Positions 3,917-62,139 of a stretch of 64,000 bases of DNA are shown here, piece by piece (position 1 is the stretch's first letter; each line of letters opens with the position of its first letter). Made by a program: the position numbers and the translations under genes. The notes beneath the pieces were generated by a model that had not been told where the DNA came from, made no database searches, and saw only the letters and a list, made by a program, of their open reading frames with translations. The stretch comes from a virus (Duplodnaviria > Heunggongvirae > Uroviricota > Caudoviricetes), in IMG/VR virus record IMGVR_UViG_2706796290_000001, positions 34,171 through 98,170 of that record, one strand, 5' to 3'.

Positions 3917-3920
3917 AGGA

Positions 3921-7215: not shown

Positions 7216-7216
7216 A

Positions 7217-8296: not shown

Positions 8297-8308
8297 TTAG
8301 GAGTAGGA

Positions 8309-8695: not shown

Positions 8696-8716
8696 TAGCC
8701 ATGAAGGAGTTATCGA

Positions 8717-9043
8717 ATGAATAACATTATCGACAGTATTACTGCATCTTTTGTTGGAATAGCTTTGTTGCTAACCCCAACAGTTGTATTCCAAGGGGTG
8801 ATGGTTGCACTTGTCGCCTTTTTCATTTGGATTGAGTATTTCTCAAAGAAATTTGATAAGAATGGTTTTATGTATGTGATGTTCACATTTATAGGAATGT
8901 CAGCATCCATACTCTATTACTATGCCCCTAGTATTCAGACCGATTTTGGTTGGACTATAGCGTTAATTACATTTAGTTTATACACAATATACTTCTTAAA
9001 GTATATCTGGAGAATGAGAAAAGATAATCGCACAGGAGATTAG
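8717..9043 (+). CDS. Membrane protein (about 4 TM helices); holin-like candidate
   Basis: Four hydrophobic helices and small size. Lies 2 kb upstream of the endolysin. Confidence 0.35.
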   Translation: MNNIIDSITASFVGIALLLTPTVVFQGVMVALVAFFIWIEYFSKKFDKNGFMYVMFTFIGMSASILYYYAPSIQTDFGWTIALITFSLYTIYFLKYIWRMRKDNRTGD

Positions 9044-9044
9044 A

Positions 9045-10289: not shown

Positions 10290-10290
10290 T

Positions 10291-10857: not shown

Positions 10858-10883
10858 TTCAAGGCAGTTAAAAGGAGTTTAAC

Positions 10884-11861: not shown

Positions 11862-11865
11862 AAAG

Positions 11866-11917
11866 AAACCCCTGAAGGAATTCCTTCCCCTGAAGGAATT
11901 CCTTCAGGGGTTTTTCT
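11866..11917. terminator. Bidirectional rho-independent terminator between convergent late and RNR genes (tandem palindromes)
   Basis: Perfect 24-nt palindrome CCCCTGAAGGAATTCCTTCAGGGG at 11887-11910 followed by TTTTT. It is preceded by a partial copy. Confidence 0.65.
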
Positions 11918-17402: not shown

Positions 17403-17800
17403 ATAGTCTCCTTATGAATTGTTTACATAATATGTAGGGATGATTTCTGGCACCACTACAAGTTGCAGGTATTGTAGTATGAATTAAATTTATAAAACAC
17501 CCCACACCTTTAGAAATTCTTAAAAGTTTACCTTGTTTGGTTGTTTGTTATACACAACACAAAGTTAAGGTATCCTCTTGATAAAACTTTTAGAGAATAA
17601 AAAAGGGCACCACCTTGAAGTAGTGCCCTAAAAGTTACCCTAGGAAATATTACTATAATAACCCCTGAGGCAAATTTTTTAAGTTTCCCTTATATTTATA
17701 GTACCCCAAAAAGCAATTTTGTCAATATGTAAACCACAAATATACTGATTGGAAATTTCGATTAAAAATTAAATATTAGTAAATTCTGTAAAAAATACAT

Positions 17801-17883
17801 CAGACTGATTTGATCAAATGCATTTTTTAAAAGTGAACATAACCAGTTCAAAATGGTTTTAACCAGACCGATTTGATCATATG
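17801..17883. promoter_or_regulatory. Pair of 20-bp direct repeats with palindromic TTGATCAA core in the divergent control region
   Basis: CAGACTGATTTGATCAAATG at 17801-17820 and CAGACCGATTTGATCATATG at 17864-17883, in the 600-bp AT-rich intergenic region between divergent genes. Confidence 0.4.
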
Positions 17884-17930
17884 TTCTAATAAGGTAATAA
17901 ATAGGGTTTTAAATATGTTTCTTTTTTAAG

Positions 17931-17959
17931 TTGACAGAGAAAAAAATTTTTTATAAAGT
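17931..17959 (+). promoter_or_regulatory. Sigma70-like promoter for the rightward early/replication transcription unit
   Basis: TTGACA-N17-TAAAGT. Confidence 0.35.
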
Positions 17960-18006
17960 TATCCACATCCAAAGATGGTTGATTGGTATAAGTAAGGAGA
18001 ATTTTC

Positions 18007-18741
18007 ATGTTTAAAGGTTTTTTAACAGATGTGGCAAAAGAAGCTGGTGTTGGTCCTGCAATTCTTTTAAATCAGTTGCACCAATGGGTTAAGTCTACTG
18101 GAAACCAGAAGATTTATAGATCAAACGCCCAACTACATGAAGACCTTGATGGAGTTCTTTCAGTAGCAGCTATTCAACGTCATAAGGTAAAACTTATCGA
18201 ATGTGGATACATTATCGTTTCTCACGATAAAGGAACTATTCGTACTACTACTTACCAATTAACTGAGAAGGCTTTGAAATCTTTAGGTGCTTTCTTTGAC
18301 AAAGCTAAAGACAAAGTTAAACAAGCCTTCCAACCTAAGAAGCCTAAAGAAAATAAACAACCTAAACAACAAGTTCCAGCACAACTTAAAGAGGAACCAG
18401 TAAAGCAAAGCACTGAGAAACCAACCTCTATGGAAGAAGAGTTTAAGAAAGCTGGTCAAGAACGTAAGGACCGCCCTAGAGGTTGCCCTAAAGAACTTCT
18501 TAAAGGTATCTTTATGGGTGCTAAGAAAGAAGAGGAAAAACAAGAAGATGTTGTTTATGAAGACAATTCTGAAGAACTCTTTGGAAATAAATTTGAAGAT
18601 CAAGACTTGAGTGATGAAGAGATCTTTGATAAAATGAGTAAAACTCTTGGTGGTTTATTTAAGACTATCCCTAATGTGGATAAAAGAAATTCAAACCTTC
18701 AATCTATGACTAACTTTGGTAACTTCAGAGAAGAGTACTAA
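18007..18741 (+). CDS. DNA-binding protein (N-terminal HTH) with K/E-rich low-complexity C-terminal half
   Basis: HTH-like LTDVAKEAGVGPAILLNQLHQW. Strong RBS AAGGAG. Confidence 0.4.
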   Translation: MFKGFLTDVAKEAGVGPAILLNQLHQWVKSTGNQKIYRSNAQLHEDLDGVLSVAAIQRHKVKLIECGYIIVSHDKGTIRTTTYQLTEKALKSLGAFFDKAKDKVKQAFQPKKPKENKQPKQQVPAQLKEEPVKQSTEKPTSMEEEFKKAGQERKDRPRGCPKELLKGIFMGAKKEEEKQEDVVYEDNSEELFGNKFEDQDLSDEEIFDKMSKTLGGLFKTIPNVDKRNSNLQSMTNFGNFREEY

Positions 18742-49944: not shown

Positions 49945-50217
49945 ATGGTTGCTGTTCCAAAAGATAAATTCCCTATTGGATGTAAAGTAAGGGTGATTAG
50001 TGGAGATGGTAGGTGGAAAACTGGAGATATTGGCAAGGTGATAGGCTATGGTGGTACAGATGATATTGTTATATACAACCCACGTATAGAAGGACATAGT
50101 GCATCAACTCACTGTTTTGATAAGAATGGTTGTAGGATCAAGGATGAAGTAAGGTTAAAATATGCAGGTCATTTATGGTACATCTCTATAAGAAGTACAG
50201 AAAGAATTGGAGGTTAA
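49945..50217 (+). CDS. Small paralog (same subgroup)
   Basis: FPIGCKVRVISG...VIYNPRIEGHSAS...LWYI. Confidence 0.5.
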   Translation: MVAVPKDKFPIGCKVRVISGDGRWKTGDIGKVIGYGGTDDIVIYNPRIEGHSASTHCFDKNGCRIKDEVRLKYAGHLWYISIRSTERIGG

Positions 50218-50220
50218 GTC

Positions 50221-50682
50221 GTGAGTAAGCAAGTAGAAAACCCTAAGTACAAATCCTTAAAACAACCTACAGGTAATGGTTCATGTCGCCCTAAAGGTTA
50301 TGGCTGGGTGCAAGTTGATAAGTTAGTGGGTTCTGACAATCAGTATGGTATTGTAGAAAATGGTATCTATAAGGTTGTGGTGTATAATCCTTTAGGTGTA
50401 ATTATTATTACTCCAGATGCCCCGTATGGTGACAACACAAGAGAGCTAATTAAGGATCAATATCATTGGGTTTCATTTGATGATGTCTTTAATCCAATAC
50501 CTGAAGATGAAGAACTGAAGGTTGGTGATAGGGTAATGCTTAATCAAGATTACAACACCTATAAAAAAGGTTATGTTATGAAAGTAAAAGAAATCAGAAA
50601 AGATGGTGACGATTTGCTTGTACAACTTTGTAATCCGAGTACATCCTTCTGGGCTTATTCTCATAGAATACGTAAATTCTAA
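50221..50682 (+). CDS. Two-domain paralog family member
   Basis: GTG start. VVYNPLG... plus second unit KVGDRVML...CNPSTSFW. Confidence 0.45.
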   Translation: MSKQVENPKYKSLKQPTGNGSCRPKGYGWVQVDKLVGSDNQYGIVENGIYKVVVYNPLGVIIITPDAPYGDNTRELIKDQYHWVSFDDVFNPIPEDEELKVGDRVMLNQDYNTYKKGYVMKVKEIRKDGDDLLVQLCNPSTSFWAYSHRIRKF

Positions 50683-50766
50683 TTAAGTTTCCATTGAAAA
50701 CTTGCACAAACCCTCAAGAAATGATAGTATGCACCTATTAATCAACCAAGCATTATAGGTGCTAAA

Positions 50767-51231
50767 ATGGCTAAACGTTTTAAGTATACTAAACTTCAAC
50801 AATCTCAAAAAACTTCAAAATTATCATCTATTTGCAATAAAGTGACTACTTCTGTAGCTCGCTTTTTTCGTGTTGCCTTTAAAAACTTCTTAAGTATGTT
50901 TAAAGGTGGTTCTCCACAGGATATCATGCGAGATAGATTTAAAGAGTGGCACGAAGATGTAAACCTTGCAAATAAGAAGGTGACTTATCAAGTTGGTCAG
51001 AGAGTAACCATTAATGATGTTTCTTATTTTGAGAAATACAGAGGTTTTCATGCTGGTGATGTTGCAAAAATTACCAAATTGATTAATGAGGATGGTGTTG
51101 AGAAGTTAGCACTCTTCAATCCTAAATGGATCACTGCGAAAGATGAACTTGGTTTGGGTTGTGTAATTGTTGATCCTAAGAAATGCATGGTGGAGATTGT
51201 TGGTGTAAAATCTGGGGGTGTAAATGTATAA
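50767..51231 (+). CDS. Paralog family member with N-terminal basic extension
   Basis: VGQRVTIND...GDVAKITKL...FNPKW. Confidence 0.45.
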   Translation: MAKRFKYTKLQQSQKTSKLSSICNKVTTSVARFFRVAFKNFLSMFKGGSPQDIMRDRFKEWHEDVNLANKKVTYQVGQRVTINDVSYFEKYRGFHAGDVAKITKLINEDGVEKLALFNPKWITAKDELGLGCVIVDPKKCMVEIVGVKSGGVNV

Positions 51232-51472
51232 TGAAGGTCTACCTGTAGATGGTGCTAAAATAGTGGTTAACAACCCTGATGGCATATCCAGAAGCACCTA
51301 CAACGTAAGAGAAAACGATGTGGCGAAAGTAGTGGGGAGAATTCATGGTTCTGGTTACAGTATACTAGCATACAATCCTGATTGGAAAAATAAAGAGAGG
51401 GATCACGATGCATTTACATACAAGGGACCTTGTGTGATATTGTGTCGCAGTGAGTATGAGGTGATTGAATAA
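51224..51472 (+). CDS. Small KOW-like paralog family member
   Basis: AKIVVNNPD...NDVAKVVGR...YNPDW...SEYEVIE. Confidence 0.5.
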   Translation: MYNEGLPVDGAKIVVNNPDGISRSTYNVRENDVAKVVGRIHGSGYSILAYNPDWKNKERDHDAFTYKGPCVILCRSEYEVIE

Positions 51473-51789
51473 TGGAAATGTGGGATGGTTATGGTGTGTC
51501 AAGCTATGCAAAAGGTGAATATGATGCATCAGAGGTTGTTGTAGGTTCAAAGATAGTTATAACAAAACCTGACAGTGTTTCTATTGCAAGGAATGCTCTT
51601 AATGGTGATATTGGAAAGATCGTACATGTATGTAAAGTTGACAACAAGCCATGTACATATCTGGCATATAATCCAAAGTGGAAATGTTGTGACGATGGTA
51701 TGCAGAGGGGTTTTGGATATGGGGGTTTGTTTATAATACTTTGGAGAAGTGAGTTTGAGGTGATTCGATATGAAAACAAAAGTTGGTGA
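51472..51789 (+). CDS. Small KOW-like paralog family member
   Basis: GSKIVITKPD...GDIGKIVHV...YNPKW...SEFEVIRYE. Confidence 0.5.
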   Translation: MEMWDGYGVSSYAKGEYDASEVVVGSKIVITKPDSVSIARNALNGDIGKIVHVCKVDNKPCTYLAYNPKWKCCDDGMQRGFGYGGLFIILWRSEFEVIRYENKSW

Positions 51790-51985
51790 TAAAATCAAAA
51801 TAACCTCTCTTGATAAGTAAAGTGATGCCACAGGAGTAGAAATAGGACATGTTGGTAAAGTTGTTGAGGTTTACCCTGCTGGGTGCTTTGCTGAGAATCC
51901 ATTGTGGGGTAAAGGTTCAACAGGATTCTTTAACAGTGAATTTGAGGTCTTAAATAAATCTGAGGGTTTGAACGATGACTGAATG
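51770..51985 (+). pseudogene. Paralog family member with in-frame TAA (codon 17) - pseudogene or readthrough candidate
   Basis: MKTKVGDKIKITSLDK*SDATGVEIGHVGKVVEV...ENPLW...SEFEVLNK aligns throughout with its paralogs. The stop at 51818-51820 falls at a variable position within the domain. Confidence 0.5.
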
Positions 51986-52244
51986 TTATTATTGGGATGT
52001 CCCATCACAAACTAAAGAGCCTACAATAAAAGTTGGCGATAAGGTTGAGATAATTGATCCTCATCAGCTTGACAAATTCCTTGGAATTCAGGTTGGGGAT
52101 GTGGCTAAAGTGGTTTATGTAGGAAATGATCATTTAAGATGTAATAATCCAAGATGGAATATCCGTGATCATGAAATCGGCAGAGTGATGGGTCTAAATC
52201 AAATTAAGCTGATTGTGAATACTTATAAGGAAGAATCTCTATGA
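51975..52244 (+). CDS. Small KOW-like paralog family member
   Basis: IKVGDKVEIIDP...GIQVGDVAKVVYV...CNNPRW. Confidence 0.55.
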   Translation: MTECYYWDVPSQTKEPTIKVGDKVEIIDPHQLDKFLGIQVGDVAKVVYVGNDHLRCNNPRWNIRDHEIGRVMGLNQIKLIVNTYKEESL

Positions 52245-52498
52245 AAGAACCAGAAATTGGCACCAAAGTTGTAATTGTTAATCCTGATGACCGTTCTCGT
52301 GCAGAAGGTATTGTTGAAGGTGATGTAGGTAAAATACTCAAATGTGAATCTAGCTTCAAAGCAAATGAGTTGCTATTACTTGTGCACAACCCTAAGTGGG
52401 AAAACATGCACGAAGGTGTTCTTGATTGTAAATCACCTTGTCATCTTGTATACTTATCTGAATGTGATATTTACGAAGAATGCCTTAAGGGGAATTAG
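52241..52498 (+). CDS. Small KOW-like paralog family member
   Basis: EIGTKVVIVNPD...GDVGKILK...HNPKW. Confidence 0.5.
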   Translation: MKEPEIGTKVVIVNPDDRSRAEGIVEGDVGKILKCESSFKANELLLLVHNPKWENMHEGVLDCKSPCHLVYLSECDIYEECLKGN

Positions 52499-52500
52499 TT

Positions 52501-52851
52501 ATGAGTGCTAAGATACCAGAAATACCACCTATACCAAAACCAGAGCCAGAAAAACCTTATGAAATTTCTCAGACTGTACATAGTCGATTTAATCACCAGA
52601 AGTGTCAGTACGAAGTATTTTCTGTAGGTGAGAGGGTGAGAATATCCCTTTATGGATCTCAATTCCTGAATAATTATGGTATTTACGATGGTCACGTAGG
52701 GAAAATTGTAGAGATAAAAAAGGTTGATATGGGGAATGGAAGTGTTGTTGCTAAGATTTACATAAAAAACCCACTATGGCACTATAAATTACCCGACAAA
52801 GACCCTACAATAATGGAGTTTTTGGATTATGAAGTTTCCAAATTGGAGTAG
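52501..52851 (+). CDS. Paralog family member with N-terminal Pro-rich extension
   Basis: VGERVRISL...GHVGKIVEI...KNPLW. Confidence 0.45.
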   Translation: MSAKIPEIPPIPKPEPEKPYEISQTVHSRFNHQKCQYEVFSVGERVRISLYGSQFLNNYGIYDGHVGKIVEIKKVDMGNGSVVAKIYIKNPLWHYKLPDKDPTIMEFLDYEVSKLE

Positions 52852-52949
52852 GGGATAAAGTAGGGAGTAGGGGTAGAGTAGTAATTAAAGTGTTAACTAG
52901 GGCAGTAAATAGAGTAGTTAATAGAAATTGTAAGTTTTAGGAGGATTTT

Positions 52950-53270
52950 ATGCCCAATGTGGATTTTGAAAGTTTATTCAGCCTCGGTTCTGAAGATAAA
53001 CCAGTAGGTTATCTCCCAAAGGATGTTAAAATTATTATAACAGCACCACAACAAGAAAAGGTTATCTTTAAAGGTTGGGACATGAGTAGGCGAGATGGTG
53101 TCCGTAGAGAGATACCTGTAGGTACTGTGTTTAAAGTCATAGATGTGACCAAGAATGGTAGATTCATTAAAGGAACTAATCCCGATTACACCTTAAGTGA
53201 TATTGTTTTTTATAACACTGAGGTGGAATATGCTATGGTTCCTGTAGAGTTGGTTGGAATGGAGGTTTAA
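52950..53270 (+). CDS. Small protein, distant member of the KOW-like family
   Basis: PVGTVFKVIDV ... pattern. RBS AGGAGG. Confidence 0.4.
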   Translation: MPNVDFESLFSLGSEDKPVGYLPKDVKIIITAPQQEKVIFKGWDMSRRDGVRREIPVGTVFKVIDVTKNGRFIKGTNPDYTLSDIVFYNTEVEYAMVPVELVGMEV

Positions 53271-53862
53271 GTAATAGAGGATGAAGTATTGTGGTTTTAA
53301 GGAATTATTTAAATATTACCTTAAGTACTACCTTTGAGGATACCTCTAGCATTGCCTACTTGGTATCTTTGTTGTTTGTGGGTAGTAAACATGAAAATTG
53401 AAGTGACTACTTCTAGGGATTCCATCAAGGTAGATTCTTTGTGCTTAAGTTAAAACTATACCACATAAGGGTTTATTTGTCAATATTTAAAAACCTTGTC
53501 AATAGTTCGTTTGTTCATTATTTAAACTAAAATTAACTAAGGTATTGTCTTTTAAGGTAATAAAGTTTGTGTGCTAATATTACAACTATATAACTACCTA
53601 TATTACTACCTATATGGCATATTTGTGTATTTCTTAAACAATTAGATAAATATTTAAAATTATTTTGTAAATTGTTTGTAATTACCACAATGTATTCCTA
53701 TATAGTTCATAAATATAAGAAAACCTTAATTTTTGTGTGTTTTAAAAATATCTATTTTATCAAGTAGTTAATAAACCTTGAAGGCTATGCTTAATTTATC
53801 CTTCAATCTTATCCTTCACAATATATTAAAAGGTGAGGGTTATTTTTGAGAGTATCCTTAAG

Positions 53863-54041
53863 GGAATCCTTCAAGGTAGGTTTCACTTTGTAGATTATAT
53901 TTGTAGTTTCTCTTGTCTTATCTCTTGTTGTTTCTCTTGTTATTTTTAGCACTCTATCAAAGGTTGTAATGTTGTTGTAATCCCTTGTAGGTCAATGTTG
54001 TAGGTCAATGTTGTATGCTTGTTTGTGGGGTTCCTTGTAGG
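53863..54041. repeat. Cluster of short tandem/direct repeats in a 1-kb noncoding region
   Basis: TCTCTTGT x3 (53910-53940). GTTGTAAT x2. Tandem TAGGTCAATGTTG x2 (53988-54013). CCTTGTAGG x2. Palindromic CCTTAAGG at 53866-53873. Confidence 0.6.
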
Positions 54042-54105
54042 AAAGAGTGTCAAGATTTTAGATGGACCAAAGACAGCCCTGTGGCGAGTTTTTAGGGGTT
54101 CTTTA

Positions 54106-54190
54106 GGGGATAACCTCTGGGGATATCCTTCAGGTTTCCTTTGGGGATAACCTCTGGGGATAACCTCTAGGGACATCCTTCAGGTTCCCT
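54106..54190. repeat. Iteron-like repeats, GGATAACC core (left cluster)
   Basis: GGGGATAACCTCT(G/A)GGGA at 54106, 54143 and 54156, the last two tandem with 13-nt period. Interleaved (G)GAYATCCTTCAGGTTYCC x2. Confidence 0.6.
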
Positions 54191-54311
54191 GAAAGGTCAA
54201 GTAAAGGCTCTTTCGATATTTTTTCACATATACACAGGGTGGGTTACTTTAGTTATTGACACCTCAAAGAATCTCAGGTAAGATTCCCTTAAGATTAAAG
54301 AGGAGGAAATT

Positions 54312-54872
54312 ATGTCCTACAAATCAGAGGTACGAAAATCTCACAATTTAACCCTAGAGGGATTACCTCAAACACCCTTAATGAGCCGTTCGGCGAATGC
54401 CTCACTAACTAACCCATTGGCTTACTCCCCAAAATACTTAGGCAGTGCTACAGAAGAAATTGACATTATTGTGCTCCTAGATGGTTTAATAACAGACCCT
54501 AAAGTTTCCCGTATTAGTGCTGACATTGTGCTGGATACCATGAACATTACCTACAAGGCATCCATAGACAATCTATACAAAGAGGTTGTGCTAAAGCACT
54601 CCCCGAACGGCGCACCAGTAAAGGGACTCAATAGAGTATATTGTCAGATTATCAGTAAGACAGATGAAAGTCAAGAAGATTTGGAGGATAAACCAGTAAA
54701 GTATTACTTTGAGGTATGGCGCACTAATTCTGAGGGCGAAATTGTAGAGCAACATTGTGCCCAACTTCTGCCACTATTGAGCTTGTTATACCCTACAATT
54801 CGTGCCTTCAAGGTTAGATTAGGTGGCATTATCCAAAAAGTTGACATTGTTGGTGCAATTAAATTACAATAG
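54312..54872 (+). CDS. Hypothetical protein
   Basis: 186 aa. Very strong RBS AAGAGGAGG. Confidence 0.45.
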   Translation: MSYKSEVRKSHNLTLEGLPQTPLMSRSANASLTNPLAYSPKYLGSATEEIDIIVLLDGLITDPKVSRISADIVLDTMNITYKASIDNLYKEVVLKHSPNGAPVKGLNRVYCQIISKTDESQEDLEDKPVKYYFEVWRTNSEGEIVEQHCAQLLPLLSLLYPTIRAFKVRLGGIIQKVDIVGAIKLQ

Positions 54873-54995
54873 ATGGATCTTAAGTCCCCTGAAGGGTATC
54901 CTAGGGGGATATTCTTAAAGATATTTTAAAAGTCCTAGATATTTTGAAAATCGTAGGAAAAATCCGAAAAAGTAGGAAAAGTTTGGGAAATTGTT

Positions 54996-55265
54996 ATGAA
55001 TCATGATGTATTTGAGTGGTATGGTGGTGATGAGGTGGTAGCTATAATAGATAAGCTGGATGCTTTGTGCATTTCTAGAGCAGTAAATATGGGGTTTGAT
55101 TGTCGAGTTATTCTTGATGCGGAGTGTAAATATGAAGATCAACGTCTAGCCTATAGCTTGATGCACAAATTGTTTGTATTAGGGCTACGCAGCCACCTAT
55201 ATATGAGCATACACCTACACTGCAAGGACGAGCTTGGTAATGAGATGCACTTTGAGCTAGGTTAG
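54996..55265 (+). CDS. Hypothetical protein
   Basis: 89 aa. Confidence 0.35.
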   Translation: MNHDVFEWYGGDEVVAIIDKLDALCISRAVNMGFDCRVILDAECKYEDQRLAYSLMHKLFVLGLRSHLYMSIHLHCKDELGNEMHFELG

Positions 55266-55270
55266 CAAGG

Positions 55271-55307
55271 AATTTTTGAAAAATTTTTGGAAATTTTGAA
55301 ATTTGAG
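55271..55307. repeat. AT-rich GAAATTTT-type tandem repeats
   Basis: AATTTTTGAAAAATTTTTGGAAATTTTGAAATTTGAG. Confidence 0.5.
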
Positions 55308-55737
55308 ATTTCTATATTTGGTGCGAAACCAAAAAAGTGACCCTAAAAATATTCTCCACCCCCAAAAAATCCATCTTCAAAAGTAGATCCTCTGGAAGCC
55401 TTTAAAGTCAACCCCTCGGTTCATCTATAAAATATAAATGCAATAAAAAAACTACTAAAAATTACCTAAAAGGTGTAGACATCGAACCCTTTTCTATGTT
55501 ATCCGTGCGCGTTTCTATTTATAGGAAAGATGAAATGGTGTATCTCAGCCTTTCCACTGGTGAACAATCTCTATTTCCTTGCTGTTAATGATAAAAGACG
55601 GCGCTTAATTCACCTAAATAAATGATTTTCTATAGGTATTCATAAAAGATTTAATAAAATAAACAATTAAATTATCTTTATTTTCATGTATTTATGATTA
55701 TTTTTAGTATTATTTTAAAATTATTTGAAGAAAAGGC

Positions 55738-55766
55738 TTGCAATAGTTTTTATAATTGCTCATAAT
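55738..55766 (+). promoter_or_regulatory. Possible promoter for the low-GC small-gene island
   Basis: TTGCAA-N16/17-TCATAAT. Confidence 0.3.
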
Positions 55767-55803
55767 CGCCTCAACTTCTCATGAAATGTAAAAAGGGCAT
55801 AGT

Positions 55804-55947
55804 ATGAACACGATTGAAATTATTGATTTTACCCAAGAGCAAGAGGAAACAATCAAACAAGCTTTTCAGGCTGAACATTTAAAAGACGAATTGAGTCTTA
55901 AAAAACAGTTTAATGATGAATACGACTTTAATTTTGATGATGAATAA
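55804..55947 (+). CDS. Small acidic protein (47 aa), not in ORF track
   Basis: ATG 55804. Translation MNTIEIIDFTQEQEETIKQAFQAEHLKDELSLKKQFNDEYDFNFDDE. Confidence 0.35.
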   Translation: MNTIEIIDFTQEQEETIKQAFQAEHLKDELSLKKQFNDEYDFNFDDE

Positions 55948-56028
55948 AAGTTTATATACAATGCAATTTATTCTTAGATTGCATTAATATGTAAACAACA
56001 AGCTAAACAGCTTAAAGGAAACACGAAC

Positions 56029-56559
56029 ATGAATACATTTGAATATATTAAATCTGCCGTTGCATCTGAGATTTATCAGTTACCTTCAATTAGTTTTGAT
56101 TATCATCAAGACAATGAACAAGCTTTACTTGATCACATTGAGGTAAACGGATATTGCCAACCTTCAGAAATTGGAACGACTGCCGAAGCTTATAACATTG
56201 TTTGGAGTGATCTAGCACGAAATACTGATTATGAAATGCCTGATTTTAGCTTATGTAAATCGAGTTTAGAATGCATCGAAGTCGAAGGGCAAGCCATTTT
56301 ATCAGGTGCTTATTATGAAGCTACTCAAGAAATAGTAAAAGAAATCGCAAGTGCTATCGATGAATGCTTTAGTTATGATTTTGGCAATTTAGAATTAACC
56401 GAAATGTATCTTGGTGAATCAGGACTAGGGCATATTCCACACGATTACGAAATAGACATTGCAGATTCAAGCATGCTTGTTTGGGTAAAATCTAAAATGA
56501 TTCAAATAACAGTTTCAGATGTCACATTGTACGGCATACTTGAACAAGTTGAAAACTAA
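56029..56559 (+). CDS. Acidic hypothetical protein (176 aa), DNA-mimic / anti-restriction-like composition
   Basis: High D/E content. No recognisable motif, so the functional idea is speculative. Confidence 0.4.
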   Translation: MNTFEYIKSAVASEIYQLPSISFDYHQDNEQALLDHIEVNGYCQPSEIGTTAEAYNIVWSDLARNTDYEMPDFSLCKSSLECIEVEGQAILSGAYYEATQEIVKEIASAIDECFSYDFGNLELTEMYLGESGLGHIPHDYEIDIADSSMLVWVKSKMIQITVSDVTLYGILEQVEN

Positions 56560-56605
56560 GCAATAGTAAACAATACGTGCATTATATTAATAGCGAGTAT
56601 TTAAA

Positions 56606-56770
56606 ATGAAAAAAGCATTTAATGGCTTAATGTATGAAAACATTAAAATATCAAGTGAAGAGTTTTATAAGTTAGGTGGATTCTCTAATCCTAATTTGTT
56701 TAGAACGTCACAAGGGCATTTTAAACAAGTTGAGACTTTAGCTTATAAGAAATTTAAGCTAACAAAATAA
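56606..56770 (+). CDS. Small hypothetical protein (54 aa)
   Basis: ATG 56606. MKKAFNGLMYENIK... Confidence 0.3.
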   Translation: MKKAFNGLMYENIKISSEEFYKLGGFSNPNLFRTSQGHFKQVETLAYKKFKLTK

Positions 56771-56874
56771 TCTGGTAAACAAAACGTGCATTGTATTATG
56801 AACAGTATAATGCACAATATTAAATGATTCTTTCGGAGTTTTTATTCCATTACATTTCATAAAGGTAACATAAC

Positions 56875-57018
56875 ATGAAACATTATCAGATCATTCATAA
56901 TGGCTTAGTTTATTGTGTAGACGTTTATGCATCATCTAAAAGAGAAGCTATTGCTCGATACAGACACCAATGGAATCTTGAAGGAAAACGCATTAACTTA
57001 CAATGTTGGACAGTTTAA
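56875..57018 (+). CDS. Small hypothetical protein (47 aa)
   Basis: ATG 56875. MKHYQIIHNGLVYCVDVYASSKREAIARYRHQWNLEGKRINLQCWTV. Confidence 0.3.
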   Translation: MKHYQIIHNGLVYCVDVYASSKREAIARYRHQWNLEGKRINLQCWTV

Positions 57019-57046
57019 TTTTTACATTTAATCGGAGCAATACAGT

Positions 57047-57325
57047 ATGAAATTAACCAATCAAGAAATTATCAATTATTTATCCACCAATCAAGATACC
57101 CGCAAAAAGGTTATATTGAGTAATATTAATTCAGTCTTAAAAGTTAATGATTTATTAACAGATAATGACATTGGTACGATTATTCATGACTCAAGCTTTT
57201 ATGACGATTTATATGATCATAACGTACCTTTCATTGACTTATTAAACGATTGGTTTATGTCGCACCTAGACATTCCCGAAAATAGTAACGATGTCATGTG
57301 TTGGTTGCACTATATTTACGCTTAA
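57047..57325 (+). CDS. Hypothetical protein
   Basis: 92 aa. Low-GC codon usage. Confidence 0.4.
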   Translation: MKLTNQEIINYLSTNQDTRKKVILSNINSVLKVNDLLTDNDIGTIIHDSSFYDDLYDHNVPFIDLLNDWFMSHLDIPENSNDVMCWLHYIYA

Positions 57326-57335
57326 TAATGTTTTT

Positions 57336-57557
57336 ATGAAATCAGACGGGAAATACGATATGACATACTCACTAATTAACATGAATAAATGTGATGTAAC
57401 TGCAATAGAAGTGATTTATAAAGGAGGTAAACGGCGTATATTCAACCTTAAAAATAAAGTTTATCGTTCTGATGCTATAGACTTACAAACAAAGTTAGAG
57501 AATTATAACAACGTATTCCGTGTGAATTGTCATACAACATTAAACCACTATATATGA
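57336..57557 (+). CDS. Hypothetical protein
   Basis: ATG 57336. Confidence 0.4.
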   Translation: MKSDGKYDMTYSLINMNKCDVTAIEVIYKGGKRRIFNLKNKVYRSDAIDLQTKLENYNNVFRVNCHTTLNHYI

Positions 57558-57569
57558 GGATACAACACA

Positions 57570-57776
57570 ATGTTAATCATTAACCGTTATAAATGCCCTA
57601 TATCAGGTAAAACTTCGATATGTGCTCATAAAGTTACTAACATGAAAGTGATTAAATCATATAAGCCATGTGATGAATCATTCATTGAGATGTTATCACA
57701 AGGACATAAGCAATTTCTATTGTGTGATGTTCCTAGTTATAGTATGTTATCTAAAATCAATATTGTTAAAAGTTAA
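57570..57776 (+). CDS. Hypothetical Cys-containing small protein
   Basis: 68 aa. C-x-I-S...C...C...C. Confidence 0.35.
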   Translation: MLIINRYKCPISGKTSICAHKVTNMKVIKSYKPCDESFIEMLSQGHKQFLLCDVPSYSMLSKINIVKS

Positions 57777-57790
57777 TTGTGAGTATATGT

Positions 57791-57973
57791 ATGAAATTTT
57801 ACAATGTTGTTCAAAGTGAAAAAATAGGTGCAAATGTTTATGGTATACGTGCCAAATCTGAAGCAGATGCAATTGAGAAGGTTTATAATAAAACTGGTGT
57901 AAAATGCCTATATGCTTTTGTTAGTAGCTTTTATGGAGTAGGTATGACTAATCGAACAGATTTGCTTAATTAA
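57791..57973 (+). CDS. Hypothetical small protein
   Basis: ATG 57791. Confidence 0.35.
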   Translation: MKFYNVVQSEKIGANVYGIRAKSEADAIEKVYNKTGVKCLYAFVSSFYGVGMTNRTDLLN

Positions 57974-57983
57974 ATCGGAGTAT

Positions 57984-58226
57984 ATGAAAATGATTGAAGT
58001 AATTAAAACGGTTAATTGTGAAAACAGCAATACAATTTTTGGATTCAATAGTGAAAATGTTTATTATACGGTTACAGTGAACAATAACGGTGATTATTGG
58101 TTGCAATTATCAGGGAGCTATTCCTTCGGTAATCATGGGCATGAAAAGATACTTTCGCATATTAAAAGTATAGGAATTGTTTTACGTGAAAATGTAACTG
58201 CTAAAAAGTATTTTAGCAAAGCATAG
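57984..58226 (+). CDS. Hypothetical small protein
   Basis: 80 aa. Confidence 0.35.
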   Translation: MKMIEVIKTVNCENSNTIFGFNSENVYYTVTVNNNGDYWLQLSGSYSFGNHGHEKILSHIKSIGIVLRENVTAKKYFSKA

Positions 58227-58259
58227 TGTTATATTAAGTTTAATTTTGGAGTGTTTAAA

Positions 58260-58469
58260 ATGATTAAATCGTTCAATAAAGATGGCAAATATTACTACTG
58301 CAAAACAGATCTAAATAGTTGGTCGCAGTGGGCTTGTCGTCATGAAGACGGATTAGAAACATTTGCTAAAGTAAGTGTATCATCATACAAATTGAAAAGA
58401 CAAAATGTAATAGATGCAATTGATAATGTAGAAAATCGTTATTCAAATGATGAGATGATTAGTAGCTAA
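58260..58469 (+). CDS. Hypothetical small protein
   Basis: ATG 58260 after GGAG. Confidence 0.35.
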   Translation: MIKSFNKDGKYYYCKTDLNSWSQWACRHEDGLETFAKVSVSSYKLKRQNVIDAIDNVENRYSNDEMISS

Positions 58470-58487
58470 ACTTTATCTTTACCTTAC

Positions 58488-58511
58488 AGCGCCGTCATTG
58501 GCGCTTTTTTA
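58488..58511 (+). terminator. Rho-independent terminator
   Basis: AGCGCC-GTCATT-GGCGCT followed by TTTTTT. Confidence 0.6.
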
Positions 58512-58540
58512 TTGTCTGGATAAACAATTAAAAAATAGTA

Positions 58541-58568
58541 TTGCAGTCTTTTATTTTTTATGTATAAT
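58541..58568 (+). promoter_or_regulatory. Sigma70-like promoter
   Basis: TTGCAG-N16-TATAAT upstream of ATG 58606. Confidence 0.45.
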
Positions 58569-58605
58569 CAGTCTTAGAAACAACAAACATTGTAGAGATT
58601 CCCAA

Positions 58606-58935
58606 ATGGCTAAATTACTTGTAATTAAAACAACACAAGCAATAATCTATGTTGCAAATGGTAAAGTTACACTAGTTAAAAATGCCTTAAATGGTCGTTT
58701 TATGAAAATCGCTAAATTTGCCAATATTGTGGACAATTTGATTGTAGCTGCTAAAAAAGCTAATTCTGCTATTAGCCAACACAAGACTTTTTATTACAAC
58801 ATAGAAACAAAATTAGCTCTACGTAAATTTAAAAGTTTAGCTAAAATGGCTACTGCATTACTGGGTGATGTGTTGGTGCATGTAAGCCGTAACTATAGAC
58901 ACACGGGTTTTGATTTTACTTTGCTATCTATGTAA
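58606..58935 (+). CDS. Hypothetical protein
   Basis: ATG 58606. 109 aa. Confidence 0.4.
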   Translation: MAKLLVIKTTQAIIYVANGKVTLVKNALNGRFMKIAKFANIVDNLIVAAKKANSAISQHKTFYYNIETKLALRKFKSLAKMATALLGDVLVHVSRNYRHTGFDFTLLSM

Positions 58936-58981
58936 TCTTAAGTAGTATACATTAACAACATTCTATATAAGGATTAATACA

Positions 58982-59170
58982 ATGAGTATTAAACAGCATG
59001 TAGGCGGTTTTCTCTTCACGTTCGGCCTAGTAGTAGCTCTAGGGTTATTCTATAGTGCCGTTGCTGAAGGTAATAATCTTAAAGATACACTCTTATCAGT
59101 CCTTTTCGGTTTAGCCCTTGTGTGGGCTATTGTAAAGGCTTTCAAAAAAGAAATTATGCGGGGGTGTTAA
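58982..59170 (+). CDS. Small membrane protein (2 TM)
   Basis: FLFTFGLVVALGLFYSAV...LFGLALVWAIV. Confidence 0.4.
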   Translation: MSIKQHVGGFLFTFGLVVALGLFYSAVAEGNNLKDTLLSVLFGLALVWAIVKAFKKEIMRGC

Positions 59171-59171
59171 A

Positions 59172-59528
59172 ATGGATTTTATACAAGAGAGATCAAAACC
59201 TGAATCAATTCAATGTAGCTTCTATGCTGACATAGGCACTACAAGTAACCCACAAGAATCTGTAACGGTGCATATCAAAGTTTTATACTCTAGTGTCATC
59301 ACTCAATTGGGAAATGAAGGGTTATCATTTGAAGCATATCATAAAGAAGATGATTACGGGTATAAGGTCCTATTTTGTGCTTTTAAGGATTATCTAGCAG
59401 AAGCTGAATTAATTATTAAGTGTAAGGATGATGTAGATAGTGTAGCTCTAATTGAATTGGCATTAGACTACATCGGAGCGGGTGCCCTTAAGTATGTTGT
59501 TAGTGAACGCTATATAGAAGCTCTATAA
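59172..59528 (+). CDS. Hypothetical protein
   Basis: 118 aa. Confidence 0.4.
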   Translation: MDFIQERSKPESIQCSFYADIGTTSNPQESVTVHIKVLYSSVITQLGNEGLSFEAYHKEDDYGYKVLFCAFKDYLAEAELIIKCKDDVDSVALIELALDYIGAGALKYVVSERYIEAL

Positions 59529-59836
59529 TTAATTTTATCTAATAAGGCTGCCTTTATAGGTGGCCTTTTTTATTGCCTAAAATAAATCAGAAAGGTTTTG
59601 CCTTAAGGGGTTTTATGTGTGGGGTGTTAGCACTACCTATAAATACTCCATGTCATGTGTGGTTATTTCCTCATAGAATCGCTCAGGTTTAACAGTGGCG
59701 GTGTGTAGTAGGGGTATACATTGGGGTTATCTCTCATGGCTATAGTGGCCCAAATATATTCATAGGCCCTAGATATTTTAGGATTTTAGGACCGAAAAAT
59801 AAGCCCGCCACCCCCATGGTTTAGTGGGTTGTCGAA

Positions 59837-59944
59837 CCCCCGAAGGATAACCCTCAAGAACAACCCTCAAGAAACCCCCGAAGGATAACCCTCAAGAACA
59901 ACCCTAAAGGTACAACCCCGAAGGATAACCCTCAAGAACAACCC
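59837..59944. repeat. Iteron-like repeats, GGATAACC core (right cluster)
   Basis: CCCCGAAGGATAACCCTCAAGAACAACCC at 59837, 59875 and 59916, with 38-41 nt period. Confidence 0.65.
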
Positions 59945-60284: not shown

Positions 60285-60524
60285 TTAATTTTCCTCTTTA
60301 ATTACTGTGCCAAGAACCTTGAGTTCACCATTTCTGTAGCTATTATATTTACCATTAGACCAATGAACCTTCCACCATATCATATTCTCATCATCACTTT
60401 CACGTGTCACTCTAACCACTTCACCAACGATACCTCTTGGGTTGTCTGGGTAGTTTTCTTCCCAGTATGGACTTAGAGGGTCTAGTGTAACTTTTGCACC
60501 AACAAATAATTTACGGCTCATCAA
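60285..60524 (-). CDS. Minus-strand paralog family member (WSNG family)
   Basis: VGAKVTL...HWSNGKYNSY...LKVLG. Confidence 0.5.
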   Translation of the reverse strand: MMSRKLFVGAKVTLDPLSPYWEENYPDNPRGIVGEVVRVTRESDDENMIWWKVHWSNGKYNSYRNGELKVLGTVIKEEN

Positions 60525-60762
60525 CTACCACTCCTAGAATCTTCAGATCTTCAGCATCGTATCCATTATACTTCCCATTACTCCAATGTACACCAATCCT
60601 TAAATCACCACCTGTTTCATAAAAGTCCCATATTTTCCAAACAAGACCAGATATACCTGAAGGGTTAAAAGAGTGTTCAGGTGCCTCATTATTGAAGTAC
60701 TGTGAGTTCCTAGCTATTGTTACCTTAGTGCCAATTTCAAAGTCTTCCAATTTATTAGCCAT
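60511..60762 (-). CDS. Minus-strand paralog family member
   Basis: IGTKVTI...HWSNGKYNGY...LKILG. Confidence 0.5.
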   Translation of the reverse strand: MANKLEDFEIGTKVTIARNSQYFNNEAPEHSFNPSGISGLVWKIWDFYETGGDLRIGVHWSNGKYNGYDAEDLKILGVVVDEP

Positions 60763-60997
60763 CGACCACCACTCCTAAAACCTTTAAGTCACCATCTTGG
60801 TAGGTGTTAGATTCACCATTACTCCACTTAACTCCCCACCAGATTTCATCTTCCTCTTCATCCTCAGCAGCAATACCAGTTACAACACCTGCAATATCTG
60901 ATGGATTTCTATAATAATTCCCATAATAAATACTCTTTGAGTCAATGGTGACTTTTGCCCCAATGAACAATTTCCGATCTCCCTCTACTATTACCAT
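60755..60997 (-). CDS. Minus-strand paralog family member
   Basis: IGAKVTI...KWSNGESNTY...LKVLG. Confidence 0.5.
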   Translation of the reverse strand: MVIVEGDRKLFIGAKVTIDSKSIYYGNYYRNPSDIAGVVTGIAAEDEEEDEIWWGVKWSNGESNTYQDGDLKVLGVVVDG

Positions 60998-61560
60998 GTT
61001 GGCAAACCCTCCACAAACTGTTTACACCAATGTACTTGACCAAGTGTCCAAGAATCATAGAAAGGTATCTCTCCAAATCTTGAGTGCAACTTTACTTCAA
61101 GCTTATCTTCCCAGTCTCCATTTCTCGACAGAATCTTCCAACCATAAATAAAGAAGTGTTCGCCATCAAAGACCAAAGAACCAATCCCACACTCATTAGT
61201 TCTTAAGTCACGCACTTCCAATAAATCACCAACATAAAGTGGACCACGCTCAAATAGATTGATTTTTGAGTAAGTTCCAATTCTACCTAAATGGTAAATA
61301 TCTCCATGTATGTTTGTATATAGTTCTCCAAAATTATAACCTTGACCAAGAACTTTTAAATCAACCGCATCGTATGAATTTCTTTGACCATTATCCCACT
61401 GAACTTGGTAGGGTAAATGACATACTTTATAACCATCCAGTTCATTCCTAATGACTACTCCAGCGATTCCTTGGGGATTGTTGAACATACCCTCATCATT
61501 CCACCACTCAGATTCTTTACTTAAGGTTACTTTTGTCCCAATTACAATTTCTTTGTGCAC
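60991..61560 (-). CDS. Minus-strand paralog family member with about 110-aa C-terminal extension
   Basis: IGTKVTL...QWDNGQRNSY...LKVLG plus extra domain (YVGDLLEV...). Confidence 0.5.
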   Translation of the reverse strand: MHKEIVIGTKVTLSKESEWWNDEGMFNNPQGIAGVVIRNELDGYKVCHLPYQVQWDNGQRNSYDAVDLKVLGQGYNFGELYTNIHGDIYHLGRIGTYSKINLFERGPLYVGDLLEVRDLRTNECGIGSLVFDGEHFFIYGWKILSRNGDWEDKLEVKLHSRFGEIPFYDSWTLGQVHWCKQFVEGLPTW

Positions 61561-61581
61561 AACAATCTCCTATTCCTATTC

Positions 61582-62139
61582 CTATTCAACACCAGTCACA
61601 CCATCTAGTGTGTCTCGAACTGTAAATTTAGGTCCGTAATCAGGTTCTTTATGAAATGATTCATGTTTTTCATAACTAACATCATCCCAAGTGTTGCCAT
61701 TTAGTGTTGCTGACTTATAGCCCATAACAAAGTAACCCTTCTTAGTTTTAACTACAGGATGAATTCTAGGAACATCGTCTTTAAAGCCTATCTTAACCAA
61801 ATCACCAACAAACAGAGGTAATCTATCAGTGCCAACCAGAGGTGTTGCTTCACCGATATTGCCATAGAACTCATCAGCGTAAAGAGTATTTTTCTTGATA
61901 AGGTATTTCGGAAGGGTGGTTTGACCTAAAACCTTCAGTTCGTCTGCCTTATAGTAATTAGTTTCACCATTAGACCATTTAACTACAAAGCACAGTCTCA
62001 GCTTGTCATTTATTGAAATGACCTGCCCATGAGTACCTATTGGGTTCCAAGGTGATGACTCACCATTTTCATCAATGATAGCCCAACGACTGCTCTTCTC
62101 TAAAGTAACTTTAGTTCCAACCTTAATTATCTTTTCCAT
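61582..62139 (-). CDS. Minus-strand paralog family member with about 110-aa C-terminal extension
   Basis: VGTKVTL...KWSNGETNYY...LKVLG plus extra domain (FVGDLVKI...). Confidence 0.5.
   Translation of the reverse strand: MEKIIKVGTKVTLEKSSRWAIIDENGESSPWNPIGTHGQVISINDKLRLCFVVKWSNGETNYYKADELKVLGQTTLPKYLIKKNTLYADEFYGNIGEATPLVGTDRLPLFVGDLVKIGFKDDVPRIHPVVKTKKGYFVMGYKSATLNGNTWDDVSYEKHESFHKEPDYGPKFTVRDTLDGVTGVE

Follow-up and report, generated by a model that had tools for sequence, protein, structure and literature searches.

Repeat arrays at the predicted terminal-repeat boundaries of Acinetobacter phage YMC13/03/R2096, candidate end-recognition elements

In phage T7, short repeats reportedly form arrays in the unique DNA adjoining each boundary of the terminal repeat. 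Clusters of short repeats beside the cut also make up the terminase recognition sites lambda cosB, P1 pac and SPP1 pac. In T5, the 10.1-kb terminal repeat carries pre-early genes that are mostly poorly conserved, and its inner boundary is straddled by Repeat Region 3/injection-stop, highly conserved repeat-rich untranslated DNA with 9 direct repeats that extends 270 bp into unique DNA and whose non-coding repeats are more conserved than the ORFs (Davison, bioRxiv 10.1101/866236). The Pseudomonas phage PaP1 (Pakpunavirus) has a 1,190-bp non-permuted terminal redundancy, established by run-off sequencing (PMC3652863), and the Bacillus phage SPO1, as far as it is summarized there, has a long terminal redundancy that holds its host-takeover module (Stewart et al. 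1998, cited in PMC3652863). Here we describe two repeat arrays of Acinetobacter phage YMC13/03/R2096 (R2096) whose position at the boundaries of a long direct terminal repeat (DTR) is well supported, and which most likely mark the packaging cut site on the phage genome. A DTR flanked by arrays is an ordinary layout among such phages, yet it is undescribed for the R2096 group.

The window analysed is a stretch of 64,000 nucleotides with 100% identity to R2096, whose whole genome record spans 98,170 bp (window position = record position - 34170). The initial annotation had placed two repeat clusters in it, and both were found at the coordinates it gave (Table 1). They have the top tandem-repeat scores of the window in Tandem Repeats Finder (TRF), which reads the left one as 5.4 copies of period 13 (54106-54173) and the right one as 7.4 copies of period 13 (59849-59944) or, alternatively, as 2.8 copies of 38 nt (59835-59944). 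GGGGATAACCTCTGGGGA is present in two exact copies (54106 and 54143) and one copy with 1 mismatch (54156), GAYATCCTTCAGG in two copies, and the 29-mer CCCCGAAGGATAACCCTCAAGAACAACCC in three exact copies (59838, 59876 and 59916). The core GGATAACCYTC, which had been ascribed to both clusters, fits the right one only; the left one reads GGATAACCTCT, so that the exact core common to both is the 8-mer GGATAACC. This 8-mer occurs 9 times in the window versus 1.4 expected, a count reached in 0 of 100 shuffles. Across the 98,170-bp genome these are its only multi-copy clusters, the 11 other sites being scattered singles.

Table 1. Features of the arrays, the inferred DTR and the upstream region (window coordinates).
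Feature	Position	Strand	Remarks
Mini-arrays, period 12/13	52874-52925, 53309-53334, 53586-53615, 53901-53945, 53985-54015		within 52845..54105; TRF
Highly conserved noncoding block	53340-53880		within 52845..54105; sliding identity to four relatives
Two TGAAGGATAA copies, 13-nt spacing	53796..53822	-	inside conserved block; right-array motif, inverted
Left array	54106..54190	+	~6 units, period 13: GGGGATAACCTCT x3, GGGRYATCCTTCAGGTTYCC x2
Inferred DTR	54210..59813	+	about 5.6 kb; boundaries +/-2 nt, by homology to Ab15 record
Promoter-like site, host sigma-70 type	54256..54284	+	TTGACA, 17 nt, TAAGAT; conserved in relatives
First DTR gene, 186 aa	54312..54872	+	phrog_36187, unknown function; conserved in all relatives
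Low-GC DTR interior	55266..58960	+	leader 55266-55803 (noncoding), then ~11 small ORFs, function unknown
Last two DTR genes, 62 aa and 118 aa	58982..59528	+	conserved in all relatives
Terminator-like hairpin	59544..59567	+	at the close of the DTR genes; right boundary ~245 nt further on
Right array	59835..59944	+	8 units, period 13; CCCCGAAGGATAACCCTCAAGAACAACCC x3 among them; convergent genes either side

The clusters had also been described as sharing one orientation, which is true of the near-palindromic 8-mer but not of the arrays over their full length. Aligned in inverted orientation they reach a local score of 23 (best of 1000 shuffles, 15), compared with 14 (best shuffle, 11) for the direct alignment, so an imperfect inverted pair describes them better than direct repeats do. 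Their strand composition is likewise mirrored (top-strand G+T of 0.56 in the left array versus 0.22 in the right), and GAAGGATW motifs are found on the minus strand only upstream of the DTR and on the plus strand only downstream of it. By hand count, R2096 and Ab15 both have a core of the GATAACC or GACATCC type at a distance of 31-32 nt from each boundary, a weak symmetry (about 1 in 4 by chance) because a 13-nt period always puts some unit near any distance. Single-strand folding of the arrays gave nothing significant, and any function would thus be exerted as duplex sites.

The boundaries of the DTR were transferred to R2096 by homology from one GenBank record, that of the closely related phage Ab15, in which positions 1-5018 recur as 97287-102304 with 0 mismatches. 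Aligned to the window, this 5,018-bp repeat starts at about 54210, leaving 20 nt to the left array, and stops at about 59813, roughly 23 nt short of the right one. Each cluster therefore borders a long DTR from the outside at a distance of some 20-25 nt, which favors the terminal-repeat boundary that the initial annotation had listed among several readings. The flanks of the boundaries, AAGTAAAGGCT and TTTTCGATATTTTTTCAC at one and GCCCCACCC and GCGAGGGG at the other, match the window at 54209/54210 and about 59813/59814 and are conserved in relatives where examined. Both boundaries fall in noncoding DNA at a plus-to-minus strand switch, and a random assembly overlap is very unlikely to give such a coincidence (chance <1e-6 by rough estimate). 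The R2096 record is collapsed and holds the DTR in single copy, as do all records of the group other than Ab15. Sequence homology thus predicts a DTR at both ends of R2096 virion DNA, which would measure about 103.8 kb, not 98.2 kb. The large terminase clusters with those of Felix O1-like, rV5-like and PaP1-like phages (38% identity); neither a small terminase nor an array-binding protein came to light.

In several respects this organization recalls that of T7, with imperfect short-repeat arrays in unique DNA outside both DTR boundaries, flanking the single copy in concatemers, and a linear non-permuted genome with host-transcribed early genes at its left end. However, the two phages belong to unrelated families (T7 is a podovirus and R2096 a myovirus), the T7 repeat is 160 bp long, non-coding and flanked by ~7-nt units, whereas that predicted for R2096 is about 5.6 kb long with ~15 genes and 13-nt units, and the right array appears dispensable in relatives. 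T5 shares the multi-kb terminal repeat of early genes and the conserved repeat-rich untranslated DNA at a boundary, but most of its repeats fall within the terminal repeat and paired DnaA boxes are among them, whereas the R2096 arrays lie outside both boundaries and lack a consensus DnaA box. PaP1 is, like R2096, a virulent myophage (about 92 kb, with tRNA genes and a large terminase about 38% identical) whose direct terminal repeats are non-permuted and contain small genes without known function; its repeat is five times shorter, and no comparable 12-13-nt arrays were seen beside its mapped ends. SPO1, in the summary cited above, is similar in its long terminal repeat crowded with small early genes and differs in its Gram-positive host, its 13-kb repeat and its unrelated genes. 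Finally, the R sites of lambda cosB, the hexamers of P1 pac and SPP1 pacL/pacR resemble the R2096 arrays, which are putative binding sites, in placing several copies of a short motif no more than about 100 bp from the cut, where they position the nuclease, although these phages form cohesive ends or headful series rather than fixed long terminal repeats.

The region upstream of the left array (52845..54105) matches no Rfam family and contains no tRNA. In its conserved block, identity to four relatives is 95-100% in almost every 60-nt window, as against ~85-93% in adjacent genes and 62-80% in the array, and the TGAAGGATAA pair is kept in 6 of the 6 GenBank relatives compared. We infer an end-recognition or packaging function for the arrays, and give roughly even chances to their being such elements, comparable to those of T7 and T5, where the DTR borders the unique DNA of a linear, non-permuted myophage genome. 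Lying in unique DNA ~20-25 nt outside the DTR, the arrays would flank its single copy in the concatemer as an imperfect inverted pair. They could act as binding sites on duplex DNA, chiefly the universal left array together with the conserved noncoding block upstream, at which the terminase, or else an accessory protein for end recognition, would be positioned. Site-specific cuts or nicks might then fall ~31 nt inward of the nearest GGAWWWCC core, with one strand cut at the first boundary and the opposite strand at the second, and the DTR would be duplicated by strand-displacement synthesis, in the manner of the T7 model. The right array would be an expandable accessory copy and not essential.

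The two arrays differ in their distribution. The left array, with 4-6 GG..TAACYTCT-type units, occupies the same position in 14 of 14 related genomes examined. At the right flank, examined in 13 genomes, three GAAGGATAA copies are present in two (R2096 and Bestia), one copy in four (AM24, Mithridates, L022 and L027), and a lone degenerate CCTCTCARGRATATC unit in the remaining seven (Ab15, Herod, L020, L021, L023, L025 and L026). Since the latter include Ab15, which has the only recorded DTR, a multi-copy right array is not needed for a DTR, and across these sequences the right array looks dispensable. This variation in close relatives, between one degenerate unit and as many as 8 units, is what would be expected if the arrays were minisatellites prone to slippage or recombination that flank the DTR in noncoding DNA near recombinogenic genome ends, the true recognition signals being the invariant boundary sequences and the conserved block at 53340-53880. 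Such a lack of sequence-specific function, which we consider unlikely, would also account for the drift of the left array, the arrays being the least conserved part of the junction (62-80% versus 95-100% in the neighbouring noncoding DNA), for the other period-12/13 mini-arrays nearby, and for the absence of visible co-variation between left and right units (in AM24, CTAAC/GTAAC on the left and GAAGGATAAC on the right). On the other hand, it does not explain why the left array is held in place in every genome, nor why the arrays and the invariant pair at 53796-53822 make up one motif with a 13-nt period, mirrored about the DTR.

Alternatively, the arrays could be operators of a phage DNA-binding regulator that switches early DTR transcription or blocks read-through into or out of the DTR. 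The core GGATATCC/GGATAACC forms a perfect or near palindrome, a typical property of dimer-bound sites, the strong promoter-like site at 54256-54284 is found 66-150 nt downstream of the left array, and the right array occupies a convergent zone where transcripts must end. However, this promoter-like site, upstream of the first DTR gene, is 46 nt inside the left end of the DTR, and the left DTR copy of the virion therefore carries it without the left array, which is thus not required for first expression. The right array, which the initial annotation had offered, like the left one, as a possible transcription-switch site, is not near any promoter, is flanked by convergent genes and is nearly missing in half of the relatives. 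Together with the absence of helix-turn-helix or other DNA-binding domains from the DTR genes (Pfam, five ORFs tested), these observations make operators improbable.

A further reading takes the arrays for iterons of a replication origin, for clusters resembling DnaA boxes, or for an injection-stop signal of the T5 kind that binds a host protein. Read on the minus strand, the left units give TTATCCCCA, 1 mismatch from a DnaA box, and this variant is also listed for the T5 injection-stop region (bioRxiv 10.1101/866236); moreover, AT-rich DNA follows each array, and cumulative GC skew peaks at the right array. Nevertheless, the consensus DnaA box (TTATNCACA) is absent from 53-60 kb and occurs 5 times in the window, exactly as often as expected by chance, neither AM24 nor the right array preserves the DnaA-like reading, and the T5 repeats are mostly inside the terminal repeat, not outside as here. 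The skew minimum, two consensus DnaA boxes (TTATCCACA) and a 20-nt repeat pair are instead found at 17.4-18.7 kb, where the replication gene cluster starts (gene order per the Herod annotation). With no initiator or partition gene adjoining the arrays, the iteron function proposed at first (origin, partition or transcription switch) is not supported, and we regard this reading as highly improbable. Least probable of all is that there is no DTR, the Ab15 duplication being an untrimmed overlap of a circularly permuted assembly and the clusters merely bracketing a mobile early-gene island: no publication on how the Ab15 ends were determined was found, the other group records are collapsed and the block interior is mosaic, but both duplication ends are intergenic, at a strand switch and at most 25 nt from the arrays, unlike a random overlap, non-permuted terminal repeats have been mapped in some phages with a related terminase, the sequence has neither an integrase nor exact repeats of the att kind, and the first and last block genes are conserved in all relatives.

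The proposal that the arrays bound an acquired island is only partly borne out. The interior is indeed low in GC (0.296-0.321 over 55-59 kb versus about 0.36-0.39 in the rest of the window) and mosaic, with a gene content that differs among relatives and patches common to TaPaz-like phages (TaPaz genome GC, 32.6%), but the genes at either edge of the block are conserved throughout the relatives. Queried with 55266-59530, TaPaz, B9, BS46, Phab24 and phiAB441 match over 11-24% at 82-90% identity, and Bestia and AM24 match the last ~560 nt only. The arrays do not track the island either: they are absent from TaPaz-like phages that hold pieces of it, and Ab15 and Herod have 56% of it with the right array essentially absent, which comes close to what the initial annotation had itself named as evidence against an island reading.

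The predicted DTR carries small early genes of unknown function, of which at least the first has a host-type promoter-like site. Five interior ORFs gave no Pfam matches, and the AlphaFold model of the first gene product was unusable (pLDDT 44.6); this gene bears an in-frame mini-insertion of 27-30 nt at 54379-54408. The about 13 small genes that had been counted correspond to 13 ORFs of 47-176 aa in 55804-59528, a scan recovered both the promoter-like site at 55738 and the terminator at 58488, and the promoter-like site at 58541 (TTGCAG, spacer, TGTATAAT) is recognisable by eye.

At 100% identity, the window corresponds to part of the genome of Acinetobacter phage YMC13/03/R2096 (hereafter R2096; KM672662/NC_027332, 98,170 bp), a virulent myophage of the unclassified AM24-like group; subtracting 34170 from a record position gives the window position. 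Both repeat clusters are directly visible in the window sequence, at 54106-54190 (the left array) and 59835-59944 (the right array), and Tandem Repeats Finder returned them as period-13 arrays, the top-scoring tandem repeats of the window. The right array holds three exact copies of a 29-mer and the left array two exact copies of an 18-mer plus one with a single mismatch. The initial annotation, made from the sequence alone, gave the clusters a shared GGATAACCYTC core in the same orientation. The exact common core is instead the 8-mer GGATAACC (9 occurrences in the window vs. 1.4 expected), and the likeness between the arrays is greater inverted than direct (local alignment scores of 23 and 14, neither attained in 1000 shuffles), with a top-strand G+T of 0.56 in the left array and 0.22 in the right. 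Genome-wide, the clusters of GGATAACC are confined to these two, the 11 other sites being single, and GAAGGAWWWCC occurs 10 times against 0.4 expected. The 11 single sites (record 561-11004; window 22122, 22927, 25588 and others) exceed a rough expectation of 2-3, possibly a codon-pair effect; those whose strand was compared by eye with gene orientation read GGTTATCC on the coding strand. An 18-nt tandem at 11869-11905 was rejected as a third array site: it has the CCTGAAGGAWWTCC of the array units but is a perfect-palindrome terminator. This intrinsic terminator, CCCCTGAAGGAATTCCTTCAGGGG (window 11865-11915), has a duplicated 18-nt half and sits between the convergent lysis and ribonucleotide reductase genes.

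The relation of the arrays to the genome ends emerges from the related phage Ab15 (PP763259, 102,304 bp), which is 83-89% identical to R2096 over this region. The Ab15 record carries the same gene block at both ends, positions 1-5018 being equal to 97287-102304 with 0 mismatches (a 5,018-bp repeat). The left end of this repeat, …AAGTAAAGGCT/TTTTCGATATTTTTTCAC…, aligns to window 54209/54210, 20 nt past the left array, and its right end, …GCCCCACCC/GCGAGGGG…, aligns to about 59813/59814, about 23 nt before the right array. Carrying these boundaries over to the collapsed R2096 record via conserved flanking sequence, we read window 54210-59813 (about 5.6 kb) as a putative long direct terminal repeat (DTR) present in that record as a single copy; the DTR lengths predicted for relatives are 4.6-5.6 kb. 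Both boundaries fall in noncoding DNA, and the right one coincides with the plus-to-minus strand switch and the cumulative GC-skew maximum, positions at which a random untrimmed assembly overlap would be unlikely to land. A terminal-repeat boundary was among the options of the initial annotation, and it is the one that the comparison supports, the arrays lying in unique DNA directly outside both boundaries of the Ab15-derived repeat. As a claim about position only, it is very probable that the arrays lie on either side of a DTR. Six sequences of relatives begin within the left array, between 25 and 50 nt upstream of the boundary inferred for the DTR: the records of Herod, Bestia, Mithridates and AM24 (MW316731-MW316733, KY000079) and the Logan contigs L025 and L026. 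Because such starts may stem from how records are conventionally annotated, or from the assembly graph breaking at a hypervariable repeat, and not from mapped ends, they were not counted as independent evidence of physical ends. A scan of IMG/VR with both boundary strings yielded no relative, its sole match (L012) being unrelated and due to chance. Literature searches found no paper on the genome ends of R2096, AM24 or Ab15 and none citing the Ab15 accession, and the literature on R2096, TaPaz and Acinetobacter phage genomics reports no terminal repeats for this group.

Conservation was followed in 14 related genomes, of which six are GenBank records and eight are contigs found via the protein of the first DTR gene. 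The left array is found in all 14, with 4-6 units of GG..TAACYTCT type, and its sequence drifts (62-80% identity to R2096; the AM24 units are CTAAC/GTAAC). The right array, followed in 13 genomes, comprises three GAAGGATAA copies in R2096 and Bestia, one in four genomes, and a single degenerate CCTCTCARGRATATC unit in the other seven, Ab15 included. Upstream of the left array, a noncoding block retains 95-100% identity in nearly all 60-nt windows across four relatives, in which the genes beside it are only 85-93% identical. The block matched no Rfam family or tRNA, and Rfam (E up to 1) and tRNA scans of 53.2-60.2 kb gave no credible match; it is a candidate for the true packaging signal or for an unknown RNA. 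Within it, the right-array motif GAAGGATAA recurs twice, 13 nt apart and inverted, at 53796-53822. Additionally, GAAGGATW motifs all lie on the minus strand upstream of the DTR and on the plus strand downstream of it, and a GATAACC- or GACATCC-type core stands 31-32 nt outside each boundary in R2096 and Ab15 (hand count), a symmetry that the 13-nt period reduces to weak evidence. As the true packaging signal, the left array, found in every genome, and the conserved block upstream of it are stronger candidates than the right array, which has the look of an accessory copy able to expand. Small paralogous genes occur in runs on both sides of the DTR; one of the five downstream has a sub-threshold Pfam match to MIB_HERC2 (E 5e-6).

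Coordinates of features in and around the putative DTR (window positions unless a contig of the same phage group is named)
Feature	Position	Strand	Remarks
AT-rich divergent intergenic region, 600 nt	17403-18741		at the cumulative GC-skew minimum
About 9 small paralogous genes	49945-53270	+	upstream of the DTR; common motifs GD(V/I)(A/G)K(V/I)...NP.W
Conserved noncoding block	53340-53880		about 540 nt, AT-rich
Promoter-like site	53483-53455	-	11/12 matches, with TG; strong; inside the conserved block
Inverted TGAAGGATAA pair	within 53340-53880		inside the conserved block
Promoter-like sites in the DTR	54256, 55738, 58541		count of promoter-like sites overall not above shuffles
Terminators in the DTR	58488, 59544
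Mini-element, R2096	54379-54408 (also 54596-54614)
Mini-element, contigs	L006 365, 164; L011 1438; L021 10070, 10258; L023 10324
Five small paralogous genes	60285-62139	-	downstream of the DTR; common motif W.V.WSNG..N.Y....LKVLG

Among known systems, T7 and T5 offer the closest parallels to this layout. In T7, short-repeat arrays lie on the unique side of both terminal-repeat boundaries. R2096 resembles T7 in that its short-repeat arrays stand directly outside both boundaries, with the right one degenerate in 7 of 13 relatives, whereas its putative repeat differs from that of T7 in length and coding content. In T5, the repeat is several kb long and carries pre-early genes, and an untranslated region that is conserved and rich in repeats straddles its inner end (bioRxiv 10.1101/866236); in contrast, the R2096 arrays are outside the repeat and without DnaA boxes. 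With the large terminase of the Herod record as tblastn query, the relatives found were those of PaP1/PAK_P1-like (38%), Felix O1-like and rV5-like phages. PaP1 has a non-permuted terminal redundancy of 1,190 bp that was mapped experimentally (PMC3652863); provided that this redundancy occupies the final 1,190 nt of the record, no arrays flank it, and therefore the arrays are not general to the terminase clade but specific to this genus. AbpL, whose ends are mapped, was rejected as a comparator, being an unrelated 41-kb podophage.

Taken together, a composite explanation, to which we give an even chance, is that the arrays position terminase or an accessory protein at the DTR ends and that the DTR is duplicated as in the T7 model. 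In concatemers, one DTR copy would be flanked by both arrays as an imperfect inverted pair; terminase or an accessory protein bound there would position nicks on opposite strands at the two boundaries, and strand-displacement synthesis would afterwards duplicate the DTR in the T7 manner. Single-strand folding of the arrays and both boundaries was no better than that of shuffles, and hairpin-based end models were therefore dropped. Alternatively, the arrays could be neutral minisatellites next to recombinogenic ends. The variation in array copy number fits such an origin, although the retention of the left array in 14 of 14 genomes and the mirrored motif layout do not, and we regard it as unlikely. 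It is decidedly improbable that the arrays are operators of a regulator: the core is palindromic and a promoter-like site lies 66-150 nt downstream of the left array, but at the left virion end this site would be without an upstream array, and no promoter adjoins the right array.

That the arrays are origin, DnaA or injection-stop sites is very unlikely. The left units are one mismatch away from a DnaA box, in a variant also noted in the T5 injection-stop region, but neither AM24 nor the right array keeps this likeness, and the consensus box TTATNCACA is absent from 53-60 kb. An element of the T5 injection-stop (Repeat Region 3) type was rejected, as no paired DnaA boxes were found within the inner DTR end. 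The initial annotation had also proposed origin or partition sites and suggested a search for an adjoining initiator gene; 10 DTR genes and 10 neighbouring genes, examined for an initiator or ParB-type gene, gave no significant Pfam match, and the clusters are near the skew maximum. The replication gene cluster starts at 17.4-18.7 kb (gene order as in the Herod annotation), where the skew minimum and two consensus DnaA boxes also fall. Besides two CAGACYGATTTGATCAWATG copies 63 nt apart, the intergenic region there has these consensus DnaA boxes, TTATCCACA at 17959 and a second at 18675, and it lies directly upstream of the primase/helicase and polymerase genes and of a 244-aa protein (formerly annotated as an HTH protein; no Pfam match), which makes it a better origin candidate than the arrays.

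Least probable is that the arrays are an assembly artefact or the boundaries of an island, given boundary positions unlike those of a random overlap and the occurrence of island parts without arrays in TaPaz-like phages. The low-GC dip itself (GC of about 0.30 over 55-59 kb) and the 13 small ORFs of the block were confirmed. TaPaz, B9, BS46, Phab24 and phiAB441 have 11-24% of 55266-59530 in common with R2096 at 82-90% identity, and the genome-wide GC of TaPaz, 32.6%, accounts for the dip in the DTR interior. GGATAAC arrays are absent from the corresponding regions of TaPaz-like phages, indicating that the arrays belong to the genome ends and not to the island; where the TaPaz record starts is arbitrary, set by a SPAdes overlap. 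The converse also runs against an island that tracks the repeats, as Ab15 and Herod keep 56% of it with almost no right array. Nor does the block behave as if bounded by att-like repeats: there is no integrase, and the terminal genes within the brackets, namely the first (54312-54872) and the last two (58982-59528) of the DTR, are kept in every relative. The genes between these form a mosaic: of 55266-59530, Bestia and AM24 have no more than the final ~560 nt. Pfam gave no match for any of the 10 DTR proteins tested, and four of them matched PHROGs, all of unknown function. Homologues of the first DTR protein occur in this phage group only, and its AlphaFold model (pLDDT 44.6) was unfit for a fold search. 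The low-GC gene block has a noncoding leader at 55490-55740 that includes the promoter-like site at 55738 and is visibly similar to the corresponding noncoding stretches of TaPaz and phiAB441; it may act as a regulatory element or small RNA common to an exchangeable early module.

R2096, P577 and AM24-like phages are under development against carbapenem-resistant Acinetobacter baumannii, and although the layout would be unsurprising to a specialist, the DTR reading helps to correct genome-end annotation and to engineer therapeutic phages. If it is true, the packaged genome would be about 103.8 kb, not 98.2 kb, some 15 early genes would be present in two copies per virion, and those at the left end, likely candidates for host takeover or anti-defence, would be the first DNA open to expression. 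The cis signals relevant to engineering or rebooting would then lie in the noncoding zones at 53.3-54.2 kb and 59.8-59.95 kb, and the boundary strings together with the left array could be used to re-orient and complete collapsed records of the genus in silico.

Aligning the first DTR protein brought out what is perhaps the most unusual feature of this stretch. A GC-rich mini-element of 27-30 nt, TAATGAGC(C)GTTCRGCGAATGCYTCACTA, whose 7-nt ends are imperfectly inverted, occurs as an in-frame insertion at five sites in the first DTR gene across relatives; both orientations are found, and at least one copy is present in 12 of 26 family members (R2096 and 25 homologues). One further copy lies in AM24 noncoding DNA beside the left array, and no copy is more than about 500 nt from the left boundary of the DTR; none was found elsewhere in the full R2096 and Herod genomes, or in IMG/VR or GTDB representative genomes. 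An invariant stretch of the gene that codes for KHSPNGAP agrees with the reverse complement of the mini-element at 16 of 19 positions. A MITE-like element and end-associated templated insertion are both possibilities. Speculatively, and as a long shot, the arrays and the inverted GAAGGATAA pair might be mirror-image landing pads for a putative dedicated end-defining protein that nicks opposite strands at both DTR boundaries with a ruler of about 31 nt, and the same end-proximal DNA transactions might also generate the templated mini-insertions. One carrier of the mini-element, L023 (GCA_052396245.1, JBQTVS010000002.1, 97,154 bp), is a complete genome of this phage group deposited as an A. baumannii 'plasmid', which could be due to a carrier state, pseudolysogeny or contamination.
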